NCBI GenBank assembly: GCA_963796285.1
Contig: CAWCKW010000013.1
Coordinates: 448,001-512,000, forward strand
Reading direction: 5' to 3'
Source: Nitrospirota bacterium
Lineage (GTDB): Bacteria; Nitrospirota; UBA9217
DNA length: 64,000 bases
The notes beneath the pieces are model-generated. The model was not told where the DNA came from. It made no database searches and saw only the letters and a program-made list of their open reading frames with translations. Positions 226-58,461 of the stretch are shown piece by piece (position 1 is the first letter of the stretch; the number at the start of each line of letters is the position of its first letter). Both the position numbers and the translations under genes were made by a program.

Positions 226-2387
226 AGACCGACCTCACCCGAAGACAGTTCCTGAAAATGACCGGCACCGGCCTTGCCATTGCAGTTGCCGCGACGGGGT
301 CCGGCTTCCAGCTGGTCTCGGCAGCGGAGCTGGAGAAGGCGGGACCCGGCTTCCGGCCGAGCGTCTGGCTGGAGGTGCGGCCTGACGACCTCGTCATCGT
401 TACCGTGAGCAAGTCCGAGATGGGACAGGGTATCTATACTTCCTTGCCGATGATCGTCGCGGATGAACTGGACGCGGACTGGAAGAACGTGCGCATGGAG
501 GCCGCTCCGGCAGGCGACGCCTACAAGGACCCGGTATGGAAAACCCAGGCCACGGGCGGCAGCTCGAGCATCCGCCACATGTATGAACCGCTCAGGAAGG
601 CCGGGGCCGCGGCGCGGGAGATGCTCTTGACGGCGGCAGCGCGCGAATGGGGCGTGCCGCCCAAGGAATGCGCTGTCGCGAAAGGCACGGTGAAGCATAT
701 CAAGAGCGATCGATCGCTCACCTACGGAAGGCTCACGCAGGGGGCCGCGAAGCTCGTGGTGCCGCAGAATCCCGAGCTCAAGAAGGAGAACCAGTTCCGG
801 TATATCGGCAAGGACATTCCGAGGCTCGACATCCAGGAGAAAGTGAACGGCACGGCACTCTTCGGCATCGACACCTTTACGCCGGGCATGGTCTATGCCG
901 CGATAGCGAGGCCGCCCGCTTATGGGGCCGTTCTCGCCGGAGCCGACAACGAGGCAGCGCAGAAGGTGGCCGGGGTGCGGCACATCGTACCCGTCTCCGA
1001 CGGGGTCGCCGTTTGTGCGGACACGCTCGATGCTGCATGGAAGGGCCGGGAGGCCTTGCATGCATCGTGGAAGGACCCCCGCTATCCCCTGCTGAGCACC
1101 GCGTCGCTTGAAAAGGAGTTCGTCGATCAGCTGGGCTCGCCGGGTATTCTGGCGAGGAACGACGGCGATGTAAAGACCGCGCTCAGCCAGGCGTCCCGCA
1201 AGGTCGAGGCGCTCTACCAGCTGCCCTTCCTCGCCCATGCGACTATGGAGCCCATGAACTGTACGGCCCACGTTCGCTCCGACGCCTGCGATATCTGGGT
1301 GCCGACTCAGAACCAGTCAGGCGTGCTGGCAATGGCCGAGAAGGTTACCAAGCTGAAGCCGGAGCAGATCCATGTGCACACCACGTTCCTGGGAGGAGGA
1401 TTCGGCAGGCGCTTTGAGCGCGACTTCGTGGAAGAGACCCTGCTGCTCTCCCAGGCAACGGGCAAACCCGTGAAGCTGGTCTGGAGCCGGGAAGAGGACA
1501 CGCAGAACGATTATTACCGTCCCATGAATGCAAGCAGGATCGAGGCGTGTCTTGATGCGCACGGCGGTGTTATGGCCTGGTCGCACAAGATCGTCTGTCC
1601 GTCCATCTTTGCCCGCGTTTTCCCAGATTCCATGAAGAAGGGCATTGACAATGCTGCGGTCGAAGGACTTGAGAACATGGAATATGATATCCCGAACGTG
1701 GCCGTCGAATACGTACGGCACGACACGCCGGTGCCCGTGGGATTCTGGCGGTCCGTGGGCAGCTCGCATAATGCCTTTGTGGTAGAGAGTTTTGTAGACG
1801 AACTCGCCCATGCTGCAAAGAAGGACCCGCTCGCCTTCAGGCTCGGCCTGCTCAAGAAGCATCCGCGGGCACAGCGGGTGCTGGAGGTCGCGGCGGAAAA
1901 GAGCGGTTGGAACAAACCGCCCGCCCGGGGACAGTCGCGCGGGATCGCCTACAGCCTGTCCTTCGGAAGCTACGTCGCCCAGGTGGCCGAGGTCTCCGTT
2001 GACAAGGGCACCGGGACGATCGTTGTGCACAAGGTGACCTGCGCCGTGGACTGCGGGCCCATCGTCAACCCGGCGATCGTGTCAGCCCAGATGATGGGCG
2101 CGGTCATCATGGGCCTGAGCGCGGCAATGAGGGAAAAGATCGAGATCGCGAAAGGCGGCGTTCTGTCCGCGAATTTTGCCGACTATGAGCTCCTTCGCAT
2201 GAGCGAGGCGCCCGACGTGGAGGTGCACATTGTAAAAAGCAGTGACGCGCTCGGGGGCATCGGCGAGCCCGGTCTGCCACCCCTGGCGCCCGCGGTGGCG
2301 AATGCCGTATTCGCCGCAACCGGTGCGCGGGTGCGAAGACTGCCCATGACACCGGAGGCCGTACTTGAGGCGCTGAAGACTCTGTAG
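222..2387 (+). CDS. Xanthine dehydrogenase-family molybdopterin-binding subunit (IorB-like) with Tat signal peptide
   Basis: TRRQFLK twin-arginine signal; [26 protein letters not shown] and NAVFAATG motifs; RBS ggagg. Confidence 0.9.
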
Positions 2388-2405
2388 GATGATAATTGTA
2401 TGAAG

Positions 2406-2600
2406 GTATGTACTCAGGCGCGACCACACCAAATGCCCGACCTTTTCGCGCAAAGCAGCAAAGTCGCCAAGGAAAGCGGGGCTCGTATAAAGGCTGATTC
2501 AGGTGTAGTCATATGCTTTCGAACTTATTAATTTTCCCCTGTTGTTGATGTTCTTTGCGGCTTTGCGCGAGACGCCTTGGCTTTTGACCTGAATAGTTAC
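2406..2600. mobile_element. MITE-like element, copy 1 (195 bp)
   Basis: Imperfect TIRs GTATGTACTCAGG ... CCTGAATAGTTAC; exact 8-bp direct repeat GTATGAAG at 2398-2405 and 2601-2608; homologous to 29187-29389. Confidence 0.8.
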
Positions 2601-2702
2601 GTATGAAGTATCCTTCTTTATTCATAGATTCTATCCGCCGTTATCAGTATCAAAGATTATGACGTGGCTTCTCTGATTCCGGCTCATCATGGGGGGGCGA
2701 AC

Positions 2703-3548
2703 ATGCAGATATTCGAAGAAGCATTGAGGCTTAAACGTCTCGGCAGGTCCTCGGCTATCGCGACGATCGTCGAGTGCCGGGGCTCGTCGCCCCAAAAACA
2801 GGGCGCAAAAATGCTTGTGCGGGACGATGGCTCTCTCCTGGGCACGCTCGGCGGCGGGTGTCTCGAGGCGGATGTGGTCCAGGCCGCGCTCATGACCATG
2901 AAGGACGGCAATCCACTCACCCTGCCCTTCGAACTTACGGAGCGGGCAGGCGGTCTTGTGTGCGGCGGCACGGTCCTTGTGTATATCGAGCCTGTTCTGC
3001 TCGAACCGCACCTGGTAATCCTCGGCGCGGGCCACGTAGGGAAGATGCTGACAAAGCTGGCGCGGTTCACCGGATTCCGCGTGACCGTGATCGATGACCG
3101 GAAGGAATTCGCTAATCACGAGAACCTGCCTGACGCGAACGAGCTTATGGTAACGGACTTCGAGCGTGCCTTTGAAGGGCTTGCTGTCGGAAAGAACACC
3201 TTCGTCGTCGTTGCGACACGCGGACATAACCACGACCTCGATGCCGTCAAGGCAGCGCTCGGGACGGACGCCGGGTATATCGGCCTCCTGGGAAGCAGAC
3301 GCAAGAAGGGCCTGCTGTTCCGGTCACTGGCGGAAAGCGGATTCGCTCAAGAGGACATCGGAAGGGTCGTGATCCCGGTGGGCATCGAAATCGGGTCCGT
3401 GACGCCTGAAGAGATCGCCGTGAGCATCATGGCGCAGATCATTCACCGAAGGAGAGAACATGGTGCTGCACGTAGCTGCCCTGATCCTTGCGGCGGGATC
3501 ATCCAGCAGAATGGGGACATCGAAGCAGCTTCTTCCGCTGGGAGATAG
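2703..3548 (+). CDS. xdhC: XdhC/CoxI family molybdenum cofactor insertion chaperone
   Basis: GSSPQKQGAKM, GTLGGGCLE, GAGHVG, YIGLLGS and TPEEIAVSI motifs; ATG at 2703 chosen as start. Confidence 0.9.
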   Translation: MQIFEEALRLKRLGRSSAIATIVECRGSSPQKQGAKMLVRDDGSLLGTLGGGCLEADVVQAALMTMKDGNPLTLPFELTERAGGLVCGGTVLVYIEPVLLEPHLVILGAGHVGKMLTKLARFTGFRVTVIDDRKEFANHENLPDANELMVTDFERAFEGLAVGKNTFVVVATRGHNHDLDAVKAALGTDAGYIGLLGSRRKKGLLFRSLAESGFAQEDIGRVVIPVGIEIGSVTPEEIAVSIMAQIIHRRREHGAARSCPDPCGGIIQQNGDIEAASSAGR

Positions 3549-4056
3549 GCCGGTCATCAGGCATTGCTACGACACGATTGCCGCCGCAGGCATCCAACAG
3601 GTGATCGTTGTCATCGGCGCCAACGGCAACGGCATCCCTGAAGCACTTCACGGCACCCCGGCGACGATCGTGCGGAACACGATCCCGGACAGTCAGATGG
3701 CCGATTCCGTCAGAACAGGCCTCGGCGCGATCGATGATCGATGTTCGGGCGTCCTCATCTGTTTGTCCGACCATCCGCTCATAGGAATTGGAACGTATGA
3801 GGCGATCATTAACGCGCACCAGGAGGCGCCTGACAGGATCGTCATTCCGGTCTACGGCGGCAGGCGCGGACATCCCACCCTCTTTCCCCCGGGGGTCATG
3901 CAGGAGATCGCGTCAGGCGCCTCCCTGCGTGACGTCATCAGAAAGGACGCATCCCGGCTGTCCCTGCTCGATGTCGCTGACGAAGGCGTTGTGCTTGACA
4001 TGGATACGGACGATGAGTATCGCAGGATCCTCGAGAAATTCAATGCAGGGCAATAG
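3460..4056 (+). CDS. mocA: Molybdenum cofactor cytidylyltransferase (NTP_transf_3)
   Basis: LAAGSSSRMG..KQLL, GHPTLF and DMDT motifs; xdhC/Xdh context. Confidence 0.85.
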   Translation: MVLHVAALILAAGSSSRMGTSKQLLPLGDRPVIRHCYDTIAAAGIQQVIVVIGANGNGIPEALHGTPATIVRNTIPDSQMADSVRTGLGAIDDRCSGVLICLSDHPLIGIGTYEAIINAHQEAPDRIVIPVYGGRRGHPTLFPPGVMQEIASGASLRDVIRKDASRLSLLDVADEGVVLDMDTDDEYRRILEKFNAGQ

Positions 4057-11535: not shown

Positions 11536-11608
11536 GGGACAAGGGTCATGGGGCAAGGGTCAAAAAGTTTTTGACGTTCCCTGACTCATGACCCTTGCCC
11601 CCTGACCC
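11536..11608. repeat. Palindromic element with 7-nt periodic arms (GGGTCAA family)
   Basis: gggacaa gggtcat ggggcaa gggtcaa ... ctgactc atgaccc ttgcccc ctgaccc; sister copy at 58396-58461. Confidence 0.8.
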
Positions 11609-12833: not shown

Positions 12834-12934
12834 CAAATTTCAAATCTCAAATAAATTTCAATAACCAAATTCGAAACGTTTAATAATTGGTGCTCGGAGC
12901 TTATTTGAGATTTGGTGCTTGAATTTTGGAATTT
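12825..12934. repeat. Palindromic element with 7-nt periodic arms (CAAAT family)
   Basis: tccaaat aacaaat ttcaaat ctcaaat ... atttgag atttggtg cttgaat tttggaa; the argG stop lies inside the left arm. Confidence 0.75.
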
Positions 12935-17696: not shown

Positions 17697-17712
17697 TGAA
17701 ATAACAAAAGCA

Positions 17713-17920
17713 ATCACAGAGAGCACAGAGAAGTACTCCTGTTCTCAAATTACTCAACATAAGGCCATTCTTGATGATATAAAGAATGAGGAAGATGAAA
17801 TAATTGCGGTTATAAGAGCGAACTGAGGGGGAGGCTGGTAAAAAGCCAGGCCAATTTGAGATCTACAGATTTCTCCGTGTGCTCTGCCTGCACCCGCGTT
17901 TCGCAAGAGCAGGGTGTGGT
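17713..17920. repeat. Palindromic element (CACAGAG 9-nt family) with a nested hairpin in the right arm
   Basis: cacagagagcacagaga ... ctccgtgtgctct[insert]gtggt. Confidence 0.65.
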
Positions 17921-18845: not shown

Positions 18846-18955
18846 ACCGCAGAGAACGCAGAGCGCGCAGAGAAAAAAAGGGTAACTCTTTTCGTTTTTC
18901 TCCGTGTCTCCGTTTATGGCCGCGTTTTGGCAACAGCAGGCTACGCCTCCGCGGT
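18846..18955. repeat. Palindromic element (CGCAGAG family) with a nested hairpin
   Basis: accgcagagaacgcagagcgcgcagag ... ctccgtgtctcc[insert]cctccgcggt. Confidence 0.7.
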
Positions 18956-21391: not shown

Positions 21392-21581
21392 TAAAAATCA
21401 AAGGCATTTTCGCGCAATGGCCAAGAAGAGGGCCACACTGAGGCGCAAAGACGCAAAGAAAGCGATGAAACTATAATCTGTTATTCTTGTAGTTCTTTGC
21501 GAGCTTAGTTTATGCCCGCGTTATGGCAACAGCAGGGTACGTCTTTGCGCGAGACGCCTTGCCTTTGACCTGAATAATTAC
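21392..21581. mobile_element. Degenerate or partial third copy of the MITE, with nested hairpins
   Basis: Right end ctttgcgcgagacgccttgcctttgacctgaataattac matches the right ends of the 2406 and 29187 copies; left TIR not recognisable. Confidence 0.65.
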
Positions 21582-21621
21582 GGATTTGCCTTTTCATATT
21601 GTTTCATCGGGAGGATCGCCT

Positions 21622-28365: not shown

Positions 28366-29157
28366 ATGAACGACATCATTCGCGCAAAAAAATCCCTGGG
28401 ACAGAACTTCCTGCGGGACCCGCACTATCTCAACAGGATCGCCGATGCAGCGCAGGTCGGCCCGGGAGACCAGGTGCTGGAGATCGGACCGGGGCTCGGC
28501 CATCTCACGACGGTCCTTGCACACAGGGCGCATAAGGTTTTGGCCATCGAAGTGGATGACCGGCTGATCCCGCATTTGCAGGACGAGTTCGGCTCAGTAC
28601 CGAATTTCGAGCTCCTTCATGCCGATGCGCTTGAGTATGACTATGCGTCGCTCAACGGCCGGTGGAAGGTCGTCGCGAACCTTCCTTATTATATTTCCAC
28701 GCCGATCATTCAAAAACTTATCGTACACCGAGAGAAGTTCATCAGCCTTACGCTCATGCTCCAAAAGGAAGTTGCTGAACGCATCGCGTCTCCTCCCGGG
28801 GGAAAGGAATACGGTTATCTATCGGTGCTCGTGCAATTTTATACCGTGCCGAGGATAGAGTTCAAAGTGCCGCCGGGCTCCTTTACACCCAGGCCCGAGG
28901 TGGACTCGATCGTGATCACCCTCACCTTGCGCGACCGGCCCGCGGTCTTGGTCAAGGATGAGGCCTTCTTCTTTCGCGTGATCAAGGCGGCGTTCTCCCA
29001 GCGCAGGAAGACGCTCCGAAATGCCCTGAAGCAGCTTGAGGCCCCTCAAGACAGGATGGCAGCGGTTTTGAACGGCACCGGCATCGACCTCGGACGAAGG
29101 GCCGAAACCCTCACGGTCGAGGAGTTCGGCAAACTGGCGGATTTTTTACTTTCCTGA
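28366..29157 (+). CDS. rsmA: 16S rRNA m6(2)A dimethyltransferase
   Basis: KKSLGQNFL, EIGPGLG, ANLPYYIS and FSQRRKTL motifs. Confidence 0.97.
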   Translation: MNDIIRAKKSLGQNFLRDPHYLNRIADAAQVGPGDQVLEIGPGLGHLTTVLAHRAHKVLAIEVDDRLIPHLQDEFGSVPNFELLHADALEYDYASLNGRWKVVANLPYYISTPIIQKLIVHREKFISLTLMLQKEVAERIASPPGGKEYGYLSVLVQFYTVPRIEFKVPPGSFTPRPEVDSIVITLTLRDRPAVLVKDEAFFFRVIKAAFSQRRKTLRNALKQLEAPQDRMAAVLNGTGIDLGRRAETLTVEEFGKLADFLLS

Positions 29158-29186
29158 TCTCGACAACGTATTAAATAATTAATTTT

Positions 29187-29389
29187 GTATCTACTCAGGT
29201 ACGACCGCACCAAATGCCGAACCTTTTCGCGCAAAGCCGCAAAGTCGCAAAGAACGTCAACAACGTGGGAAACTTGATTAGTTCGTAAGAAAACAATAAC
29301 GCCTGATTCTTCCTGTATACGAGACCTGCTTTCCTTTGCGACTTTGCGGCTTTGCGCGAGACGCCTTTGTTTTTGACCTGAATAGTTAC
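29187..29389. mobile_element. MITE-like element, copy 2 (203 bp)
   Basis: TIRs GTATCTACTCAGG ... CCTGAATAGTTAC; flanking TTAATTTT / TTAATTAT (7 of 8 match); core inverted relative to copy 1. Confidence 0.8.
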
Positions 29390-29454
29390 TTAATTATTAT
29401 CAAGGTAGAATGACCTTGGACCACGTTGCAGAGCCTTTGCACTTTCTTTTCGCC

Positions 29455-29482
29455 TTGACATTTAATCATCTTGCCATATAAT
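29455..29482 (+). promoter_or_regulatory. Sigma70 promoter upstream of gmhA
   Basis: Perfect TTGACA-16 bp-TATAAT. Confidence 0.65.
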
Positions 29483-29519
29483 AAACGCCTGTTCATTCTT
29501 GCCAATTCAGGAGCGGTTC

Positions 29520-30101
29520 ATGAAAGACGCGATCATCAAGGCATTCGAAGAGAGTGCCCGGATAAAGGTCAAGTTCGTCAGGGAAAATGTCGACAAGATC
29601 ATGGAAGTGGTCCAACTGATCGCGCAGGCGTTCCGCGAAGGTAAGAAGGTCCTTCTCTTCGGCAACGGCGGGAGCTCTACTGATGCCTCTCATATTGCCG
29701 CCGAGTTTGTGAACCGCTTTATCATTGAACGGCCGCCCCTGCCCGCGATCGCGCTGAACACCGACGTTGCGGTGCTCACGAGCATCAGCAACGATTACGA
29801 CTTTTCGCAGGTATTTGCAAAGCAGATCGCCGCCCTCGGCAATGAAGGCGACGTGGTGATCGGCCTCAGCACGAGCGGCAACTCACCGAATGTGGTCAAG
29901 GCGATCGACGTGGCGAAGAAGAACGGTATGAGGACCATCGTCCTGACCGGCGGCAACGGCGGCAAGCTCGCGAACAAGGCTGACCATACGTTCATTGTCC
30001 AATCAAAGGTTACGGCGCGCATCCAGGAAACGCACATCACGCTCGGCCATACCATCTGCCAGATGGTGGATGAAGAGCTGTTCGGAAACCACGGGAAATA
30101 G
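29520..30101 (+). CDS. gmhA: Phosphoheptose isomerase
   Basis: FGNGGS, SNDY, STSGNSPNV and RIQETH motifs. Confidence 0.95.
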   Translation: MKDAIIKAFEESARIKVKFVRENVDKIMEVVQLIAQAFREGKKVLLFGNGGSSTDASHIAAEFVNRFIIERPPLPAIALNTDVAVLTSISNDYDFSQVFAKQIAALGNEGDVVIGLSTSGNSPNVVKAIDVAKKNGMRTIVLTGGNGGKLANKADHTFIVQSKVTARIQETHITLGHTICQMVDEELFGNHGK

Positions 30102-45653: not shown

Positions 45654-45690
45654 TGTTGCCTCCTCGCTGTCTAAAACGTAATGATAAAAT

Positions 45691-45772
45691 TAACCACAGA
45701 GCACACAGAGAAATCTTACGATCTCAAAAGCATAAGGCTTTCCCCGGCCGCCGCCTCTGTGCCCTCTGTGGT
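45691..45772. repeat. Palindromic element (CACAGAG family)
   Basis: aaccacagagcacacagag ... ctctgtgccctctgtggt. Confidence 0.75.
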
Positions 45773-54624: not shown

Positions 54625-54646
54625 GGGAAAACTCCTTTCAAGGCTT

Positions 54647-54707
54647 AACCACAGAGAGCACAGAGGAATCTCAACAGCATGAATATTTTCTCTGTGACCT
54701 CTGTGGT
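54647..54707. repeat. Palindromic element (CACAGAG family)
   Basis: aaccacagagagcacagagg ... ctctgtgacctctgtggt. Confidence 0.8.
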
Positions 54708-54720
54708 GAAATTTGTTTGA

Positions 54721-58395: not shown

Positions 58396-58461
58396 GGGTC
58401 AAGGGTCATGGGACAAGGGTCAAAAGAATTTACCTGACCCATGACCCCTGCCCCTTGCCCC
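58396..58461. repeat. Palindromic element with 7-nt periodic arms (GGGTCAA family)
   Basis: gggtcaa gggtcat gggacaa gggtcaa ... ctgaccc atgaccc ctgcccc ttgcccc. Confidence 0.8.

Follow-up and report, generated by a model that had tools for sequence, protein, structure and literature searches.

The stretch of DNA analysed here (hereafter the window) comprises 64,000 nucleotides (nt) of a Nitrospirota genome, G000:C13:448001-512000, and carries two copies of a miniature inverted-repeat transposable element (MITE) whose central segments lie in opposite orientations. The source genome, G000, is a 3.58-Mb metagenome-assembled genome that is 96% complete with 5% estimated contamination, and the locus of the window was also met in peat, wetland and sediment metagenomes. 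The neighbours of copy 1 are an xdh-like molybdopterin subunit gene and xdhC, and those of copy 2 are an rsmA-like methylase gene and a SIS-domain (gmhA-like) gene. The element is non-coding, with no open reading frame (ORF) in either copy, and a search of the whole window against Rfam at gathering thresholds gave no match. Inside the terminal inverted repeats and outer flanks lies a hairpin made of two octamer-repeat arms and a loop, here called the core. The features, in window positions, are as follows.

2406-2600: MITE copy 1, 195 bp, core in the minority ('A') orientation
2398-2405: left target-site duplication of copy 1, 8 bp, GTATGAAG, identical to 2601-2608
2406-2418, plus strand: left terminal inverted repeat of copy 1, GTATGTACTCAGG, matching the right end at 10/13 positions
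2447-2471, plus strand: left arm of copy 1, octamer array CGCGCAAAGCAGCAAAGTCGCCAAG
2472-2552: core (hairpin loop) of copy 1, reverse complement of the copy 2 core
2553-2569, minus strand: right arm of copy 1, CTTTGCGGCTTTGCGCG, with two octamer units in place of the three in other copies
2588-2600, minus strand: right terminal inverted repeat of copy 1, reverse complement GTAACTATTCAGG
2601-2608: right target-site duplication of copy 1, 8 bp, GTATGAAG
29187-29389: MITE copy 2, 203 bp, core in the majority ('B') orientation, with an orthologous copy in the sister genome G004
29179-29186: left target-site duplication of copy 2, TTAATTTT, matching 29390-29397 at 7/8 positions
29227-29252, plus strand: left arm of copy 2, three octamer units, 26 nt, 100% complementary to 29334-29359
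29253-29333: core (loop) of copy 2
29334-29359, minus strand: right arm of copy 2
29390-29397: right target-site duplication of copy 2, TTAATTAT
21540-21585: partial copy that consists of just the right flank and right terminal repeat and is joined to a 33-nt module and a further octamer hairpin

The arms are inverted (CGCAAAGN)n arrays, complementary at 26/26 positions in copy 2 and at about 19/20 in copy 1, and the termini pair GTATGTACTCAGG or GTATCTACTCAGG with GTAACTATTCAGG. The two outer flanks are unlike each other, the left one beginning TACGACCGCACCAAATGCC and the right one ending GAGACGCCTTTGTTTTTGACC. Because of this asymmetry the reference frame is unambiguous, and it is the core that is reversed rather than the whole element. 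When the two copies were compared by BLAST, the left flanks aligned on the same strand at 87.9% identity over 66 nt and the right flanks on the same strand at 94.1% over 51 nt, while the middle (window 2446-2567) aligned on the minus strand at 81% over 122 nt (E 5e-27). The switch of strand falls inside the octamer arms, and the flanks are unchanged. Ungapped counting over the 82 positions of the core, with the arms left out (2471-2552 against 29253-29334), gave 62/82 matches as the reverse complement compared to 19/82 in direct orientation; 2000 shuffles gave a mean of 21.7 (sd 4.0) and a maximum of 34. The first-pass annotation, made from the letters of the window, had counted about 62/82 by hand and proposed a core inverted between internal inverted arms. 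The computed count is exactly that, its significance is upheld, and the inversion is supported as a past event. The coordinates of the copies, the same-strand flanks, the terminal inverted repeats and the 8-bp duplications (exact for copy 1, 7/8 for copy 2) were likewise confirmed.

A backwards core could in principle be an artefact of assembly, with short inverted repeats misresolved in a metagenome-assembled genome that has 5% estimated contamination. Two metagenomes from two other, independent studies, X1 and X2, bear on this. Copy 1 is spanned whole and colinearly by X1 record 4 (2351-2721, 7 differences in 369 nt) and by X2 record 13 (2310-3242, 14 differences in 931 nt), and the copy 1 core differs from that of copy 2 by 20 substitutions and is therefore not misplaced copy 2 sequence. 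An artefact is effectively refuted, and we give it a negligible probability.

Both copies were used as BLAST queries against the entire source genome, which holds six full or near-full copies of the MITE and two partial ones. With orientation scored for each copy, as the first-pass annotation had proposed, five of the six copies carrying the 82-nt core are in the 'B' orientation and only copy 1 is in 'A'. The copy 1 core is also the most diverged, with 65-79% identity to the other copies compared to 78-91% among those. Further copies are present in the related genomes G003, G004 and G006. Of the 64 same-family genomes searched for the 82-nt core class, only three, all of the genus, contain it.

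The element is a MITE, a non-autonomous mobile element, as first proposed: it has terminal inverted repeats, dispersed copies, 8-bp duplications at three copies, and termini in common with an insertion sequence (IS) of the IS66 family. The duplication length is 8 bp throughout (copy 1 8/8, copy 2 7/8, copy c3 8/8), and the exact duplication AATAAGTT of copy c3 (C13:289544-289771) extends this feature beyond the window. Copy c5 has no duplication (3/8). The terminal pattern GTAWYTAYTCAGG, with one mismatch allowed, occurs 26+26 times in G000 compared to 8+15 for a reversed control. Eight pairs of termini were recovered genome-wide, three of which are copies of this MITE and one of which spans 3.8 kb without a duplication. 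The remaining four are MITE-sized (<400 bp) and combine the same termini with unrelated interiors; two of them carry duplications (8/8 and 7/8) and two carry none (4/8 and 5/8). One MITE, at C3:187022-187165, has the same IS66-type termini around an interior that is a CACGAAGN octamer hairpin.

Empty sites in related genomes had been named as a check, and the outcome is divided. The MITE is missing from the orthologous intergenic regions of three sister species (G005, G001 and G003) at both loci, while a base-precise empty site could not be defined. G004, the closest of the sisters, does have copy 2 at the orthologous site (1.8 kb aligned at 96% identity), with its core in the same orientation. 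Metagenome contigs contain joints 2378>2702 and 2389>2703 that skip 313-323 nt, more than the length of the MITE; other strains or species are their possible source. G004 also has an insertion that is missing from G000 (L161, near window 12915-12924), which was considered as a possible clean empty site and set aside for want of a clear duplication.

The first-pass annotation had also suggested a search for a transposase bounded by MITE-like ends. Such a gene was found in G069 and G055 and not in G000, where no IS66 DDE domain was detected (genome 96% complete); the domain is present in 19 of the 64 same-family genomes. G069 contains two 1725-bp elements that are bounded by GTAACTATTCAG on either side and flanked by exact duplications of 8 bp (CATAGTTT and AATTTATT), and G055 contains one 1726-bp element with GTAACTATTCAG at both ends. 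The first 12 nt of the right end of the MITE, GTAACTATTCAGG, are identical (12/12) to the ends of these elements. The IS encodes a single ORF of 490 aa that matches PF03050 (1.4e-43) and the NCBIfam IS66 transposase model (4.8e-86), and it belongs to the single-ORF ISBst12 group of the IS66 family. We take IS66-family termini to begin with GTAA, for which ISDge4 is the one example within this analysis. As published, ISDge4, a member of the ISBst12 group, encodes one ORF between its termini GTGACTACTCAGCA and GTAACTGCTCAGCA and has an 8-bp repeat (PMC12898284). Its likeness to our element lies in termini that begin GTAAC and have TCAG at positions 9-12 (GTAACTGCTCAGCA in ISDge4, GTAACTATTCAGG in the MITE) and in the 8-bp target duplication (PMC12898284). 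The MITE differs from the ISBst12 group in having no ORF and an interior unrelated to the subterminal sequence of the IS, so that the ends alone are common to both; the matching IS is also absent from G000 and, among the genomes searched, from its genus. An ISBst12-group transposase would, to judge from these ends, act in trans on the MITE. Since G000 has no such transposase gene, its MITE copies are probably immobile now.

IS66-family elements do occur in the genus of the window, g1, at L175 (G006:C36:1727-3778) and L176 (G007:C236:154-2222). They measure 2052-2069 bp, and neither of the two has a preserved duplication. As partners of the MITE they were rejected, their termini (GTAACAGTTTAG) being different.

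The interior of the MITE is a resident octamer hairpin and is not derived from the partner IS. A pattern search found 88 octamer arrays (CGCAAAGN)n in G000, pairing into 42 hairpins with loops of 32-127 nt. Most of these hairpins have one end of the type GmGAGAyG and the other of the type GmGAAAA, about 35 of the loci have no MITE termini, and the hairpins occur together with three further short modules, which number 27, 18 and 45 copies. In a search for arms and copies across 41 genomes, which included 24 others of the same family and 16 from other families of the phylum, arm-like matches were present in 23/24 of the former and 0/16 of the latter. Among the genomes searched, this hairpin superfamily is confined to the one bacterial family.

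Several other repeats accompany the octamer hairpins. The module of 27 copies is a 33-nt sequence, GTTTATGGCCGCGTTTTGGCAACAGCAGGCTAC, found in the window at 18912-18944 and 21508-21540. It is inserted inside octamer arms in either orientation, including those of MITE copies c3 and c4, and may be a tiny nested element. The window also holds hairpins with tandem GGGTCAA-like heptamer arms (GGGACAAGGGTCATGGGGCAAGGGTCA ... TGACCCTTGCCCC) at 11536-11601 and 58396-58461, which share the architecture of the octamer hairpins and have a different repeat unit, and hairpins with CACAGAG-type arm units (ACCACAGAGAGCACAGAG ... CTCTGTGACCTCTGTGGT) at 45690-45770, 54645-54710 and 17710-17736. Elsewhere in G000, two hairpins about 2 kb apart (C3:40072-40141 and C3:42113-42182) are identical over the 45 nt that flank them on each side and differ at 1/42 loop positions, which suggests a recent local duplication. 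A link to RAYT/Y1 transposases was considered and dropped: the two PF01797 genes (C13:80663 and C12:2055289) have no octamer arrays in the surrounding loci, which were searched for about 1.5 kb on each side, one locus ending at the end of its contig.

The reversal seen in copy 1 recurs within the superfamily. Loop orientation was compared with flank orientation in 85 pairs of hairpins with similar loops, of which 34 were concordant, 18 discordant and 33 ambiguous. The 18 discordant pairs trace to at least three elements (copy 1, C13:605868 and C3:111632), and flips were found in at least three loop classes. For example, the loops of C12:1219435 and C13:605868 score 56 in direct orientation compared to 12 in reverse, and their flanks score 14 in direct orientation compared to 53 in reverse. 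A second flip within the MITE family is that of the truncated copy c7 (C12:1816120-1816300), which has a shorter 50-nt core that is reversed relative to the copies in G003 and G006, and its left flank is colinear with theirs. This core matches at 41/52 positions as the reverse complement, with a score of 28 compared to -4 in direct orientation and a shuffle maximum of 4.

Orthologous sites were compared between G000 and G004, in which 20 regions with octamer arrays were examined and 12 colinear loci scored. Hairpins were present in 9/12 of these loci, with the loop direct in seven (one weakly), unresolved in one and reversed in one. The reversed loop lies at G004:C15:61800-63200, opposite G000:C12:1407026-1408422, and scores 34 as the reverse complement compared to 14 direct; the flanks on both sides are colinear with G000. 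On the aligned sequences this locus reads as a flip, or as replacement by a flipped paralogue, at an orthologous site. G000 and G004 carry different elements at six loci, and therefore loops also get replaced. Repeat content at fixed sites turns over quickly. At G004 loci L153, L159, L160, L161, L165 and L166 the hairpins differ from those of G000 at orthologous intergenic sites, and where G000 has MITE copy c4 (C13:431046-431241), G004 carries a hairpin of another type whose 33-nt module is oppositely oriented.

These comparisons bear on an origin by nested insertion, in which the arms and loop would be a separate small mobile element that entered an empty MITE frame in either orientation. 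The first-pass annotation had offered this as one of two origins. It is compatible with copy 1, and it would account for the octamer hairpins at about 35 loci without MITE termini, for other MITE families that have the same termini around other interiors (one of them a different octamer hairpin), and for the 33-nt module found inside the arms of c3 and c4. Its probability is lowered by the orthologous locus at which a comparable flip lies between two conserved flanks. Moreover, no hairpin-less frame was found among the terminal pairs, the junction position is identical in all copies, and flips in at least three loop classes would need repeated insertion at identical sites. We consider nested insertion improbable.

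Our preferred explanation is a passive inversion in cis, which the anatomy makes reasonably probable. In the lineage of copy 1 the loop would have turned around between its two arms, in place and without a dedicated recombinase, either by switching of template by a DNA polymerase across the hairpin or by recombination between the closely spaced inverted arms, and the flipped state would then have become fixed. We favour this because the switch of strand lies in short inverted repeats, because the arms are perfect, and because they are kept while the loop drifts. Template switching between short inverted repeats is reported to homogenise the arms and invert the spacers (PMC8604942). The drift of the loop is seen in copy 2: between G000 and G004 its flanks and arms show 0/121 differences and its loop 7/82 (Fisher p 0.0015), compared to a background of 76/1801 differences (4.2%) in the surrounding 1.8 kb. 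The outer parts of copy 2 are either homogenised among copies or under constraint.

The loop could instead have been flipped in trans, through ectopic recombination or gene conversion with a paralogous hairpin paired in the inverted sense. The arms are common to all elements and form inverted repeats with one another; a donor could thus pair either way and deposit its loop reversed. Exchange of this kind would fit the 6/20 G004 regions with a different, replaced or inserted element, the two paralogues that match the flipped orthologous loop at 56 positions compared to 58 for the ortholog, and the 0/121 differences in the flanks and arms of copy 2 compared to 4.2% around it, as expected under concerted evolution. 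For copy 1, however, there is no close donor (its core is 65-79% identical to every copy), so that a conversion would be old, and the data fit inversion in cis equally. We regard exchange in trans as unlikely, if the most serious of the alternatives to inversion in cis.

Several points weigh against our account of an IS66-mobilised MITE with a loop that inverted in place. The reversed G004 loop matches two paralogues at 56 positions each, close to the 58 of the ortholog, and in 6/20 of the G004 regions the two genomes do not carry the same element, so that loops are replaced as well. As far as sequence comparison goes, the data would fit template switching and inverted-repeat recombination alike, and an in-place event and an exchange between paralogues alike. 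The population data are assembled contigs, in which a minority orientation would be invisible. The intergenic regions of G005, G001 and G003 are too diverged to place the empty site base-precisely. Finally, the matching IS was found only in another genus (g32), and the IS66 elements of genus g1 (G006 and G007) carry other termini, GTAACAGTTTAG.

The position of the core between inverted repeats and upstream of genes had led the first-pass annotation to propose a portable orientation switch acting on xdhC and gmhA. This was not borne out: one of six cores is flipped and it is the most diverged, the cores contain no sigma-70-like promoter, and the contig encodes no serine or tyrosine recombinase. 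Active switching found no support either, as orientation is fixed wherever it could be checked (copy 1 in X1 and X2, copy 2 in G004). Copy 1 is in the 'A' orientation in both X1 record 4 and X2 record 13, which are about 98% identical to the window. Contigs of four metagenome runs were aligned to window 1400-3600; they show a single orientation, and no strand-change joint was reported among them, although assembled contigs drop rare variants and a minority form would not show. Two joints, 2471>2553 and 2477>2553, were considered as a flipped allele; they have only 26 nt on the shorter side and were read instead as paralogous elements sharing arms.

A scan for the sigma-70 consensus found no promoter-like site in 2200-2800, the region of copy 1. 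In 29000-29600 it found three sites, all outside the copy 2 core. One of these is a perfect match at 29455-29482 (TTGACA-16-TATAAT, 12/12), which lies outside the MITE, upstream of the gene for the SIS-domain protein. A hybrid match of 10/12 takes its TTGACC from the right end of the MITE and is therefore independent of core orientation. The -35 region of the match at 29455-29482, including TTGACA, is kept in G005, G003 and G004, and its TATAAT in G005 and G003 only. No recombinase gene was found on contig C13; G000 as a whole has one match to PF00239 (serine recombinases, on C6) and five to PF00589 (tyrosine recombinases, on C12 and C3). The predicted RNA fold is a long stem in both copies, at -74 kcal/mol (z -7.5) for copy 2 and -59.5 kcal/mol (z -2.0) for copy 1. 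On this folding model the stem would form in either orientation, the arms pairing whatever the direction of the loop.

An active phase-variable switch, in which the core flips often and alters expression of xdhC or of the gmhA-like SIS gene, is very unlikely on these data. It would suit the inverted repeats around a short segment upstream of genes and the repeated flips over evolution, and a review reports inversion of the Correia MITE in Neisseria and its link to phase variation (PMC10969869). Neither core, however, contains a promoter-like site, and the sole strong match (12/12) is outside the element; two independent metagenome populations and a sister species show no difference in orientation; the flipped core is the most diverged copy; the contig is without a recombinase; and an RNA stem would probably form in either orientation. 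A long shot, which we hold to be highly doubtful, is that the octamer hairpins act as a recombinase-independent stochastic switch, with loops flipping, and passing from one element to another, at a rate high enough within populations to change the fate of transcripts from adjacent genes. If this were true, the switch would owe its portability to the MITE termini. The flips observed recur over times comparable to the divergence of species, and a minority orientation at low frequency in populations is compatible with the data. The flip looks like an occasional accident that recurs across the superfamily rather than a regulated switch. A flipped core between inverted repeats beside genes resembles a switch, and caution is warranted, as here it behaves as a slow mutational by-product.

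Taken with its relatives, the element represents a new MITE family in uncultured wetland Nitrospirota that is tied to an ISBst12-type IS66 transposase. Among the papers searched, none joined ISBst12 with a MITE, and none, judged by title, gave an earlier description of a MITE with an IS66 duplication, of a Nitrospirota MITE or of a template-switch inversion in a bacterial MITE. The surrounding system of modular repeats may merit a survey of its own. Such a system recalls the REP and BIME sequences of enterobacteria, which are dispersed intergenic palindromic units combined with short modules. The octamer hairpins are likewise dispersed intergenic palindromes joined to short modules in variable order and orientation. 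They differ in that their arms are tandem octamers rather than single REP palindromes, in that no arrays adjoin the two Y1-transposase genes, and in that part of the octamer family carries IS66-type termini and duplications.

With respect to the flip, site-specific invertible promoters such as fimS, hin and the Bacteroides invertons have inverted repeats around a short segment upstream of genes, and so does the MITE. Classical invertons have segments longer than 82 bp. In contrast to invertons, there is no recombinase on the contig here, no promoter-like site in the segment and no mixed orientation in the contigs. In the Correia case the element inverts between its terminal repeats, and promoters encoded in its ends move with it. 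In our element the outer flanks stay, the flip is confined to the inner loop, and the loop showed no promoter-like site. Inversion of the Correia MITE in Neisseria, which a review reports and links to phase variation (PMC10969869), is the closest published bacterial parallel, likewise a bacterial MITE that adjoins genes and whose orientation can change in place.

The inversion of spacers by template switching is similar in that a short spacer between close inverted repeats is reversed, recurrently and homoplastically, with the arms well matched. Here, by contrast, the arms are tandem octamer arrays present in dozens of dispersed elements, which opens the way to exchange in trans. Small inversions of 4-50 bp are common in plastids and attributed to hairpins (PMC12371153). 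The spacer of the MITE family is longer than these (41-82 nt and more) and resides in a bacterial mobile element. ISBst12-type MITEs and hairpin-loop inversions are both of known kinds, and the present case is ordinary but clean. As a bacterial hairpin-loop inversion it is unusually so: the frame is fixed by the asymmetric flanks, loops of several classes have flipped, and one flip lies at a site orthologous between sister species.

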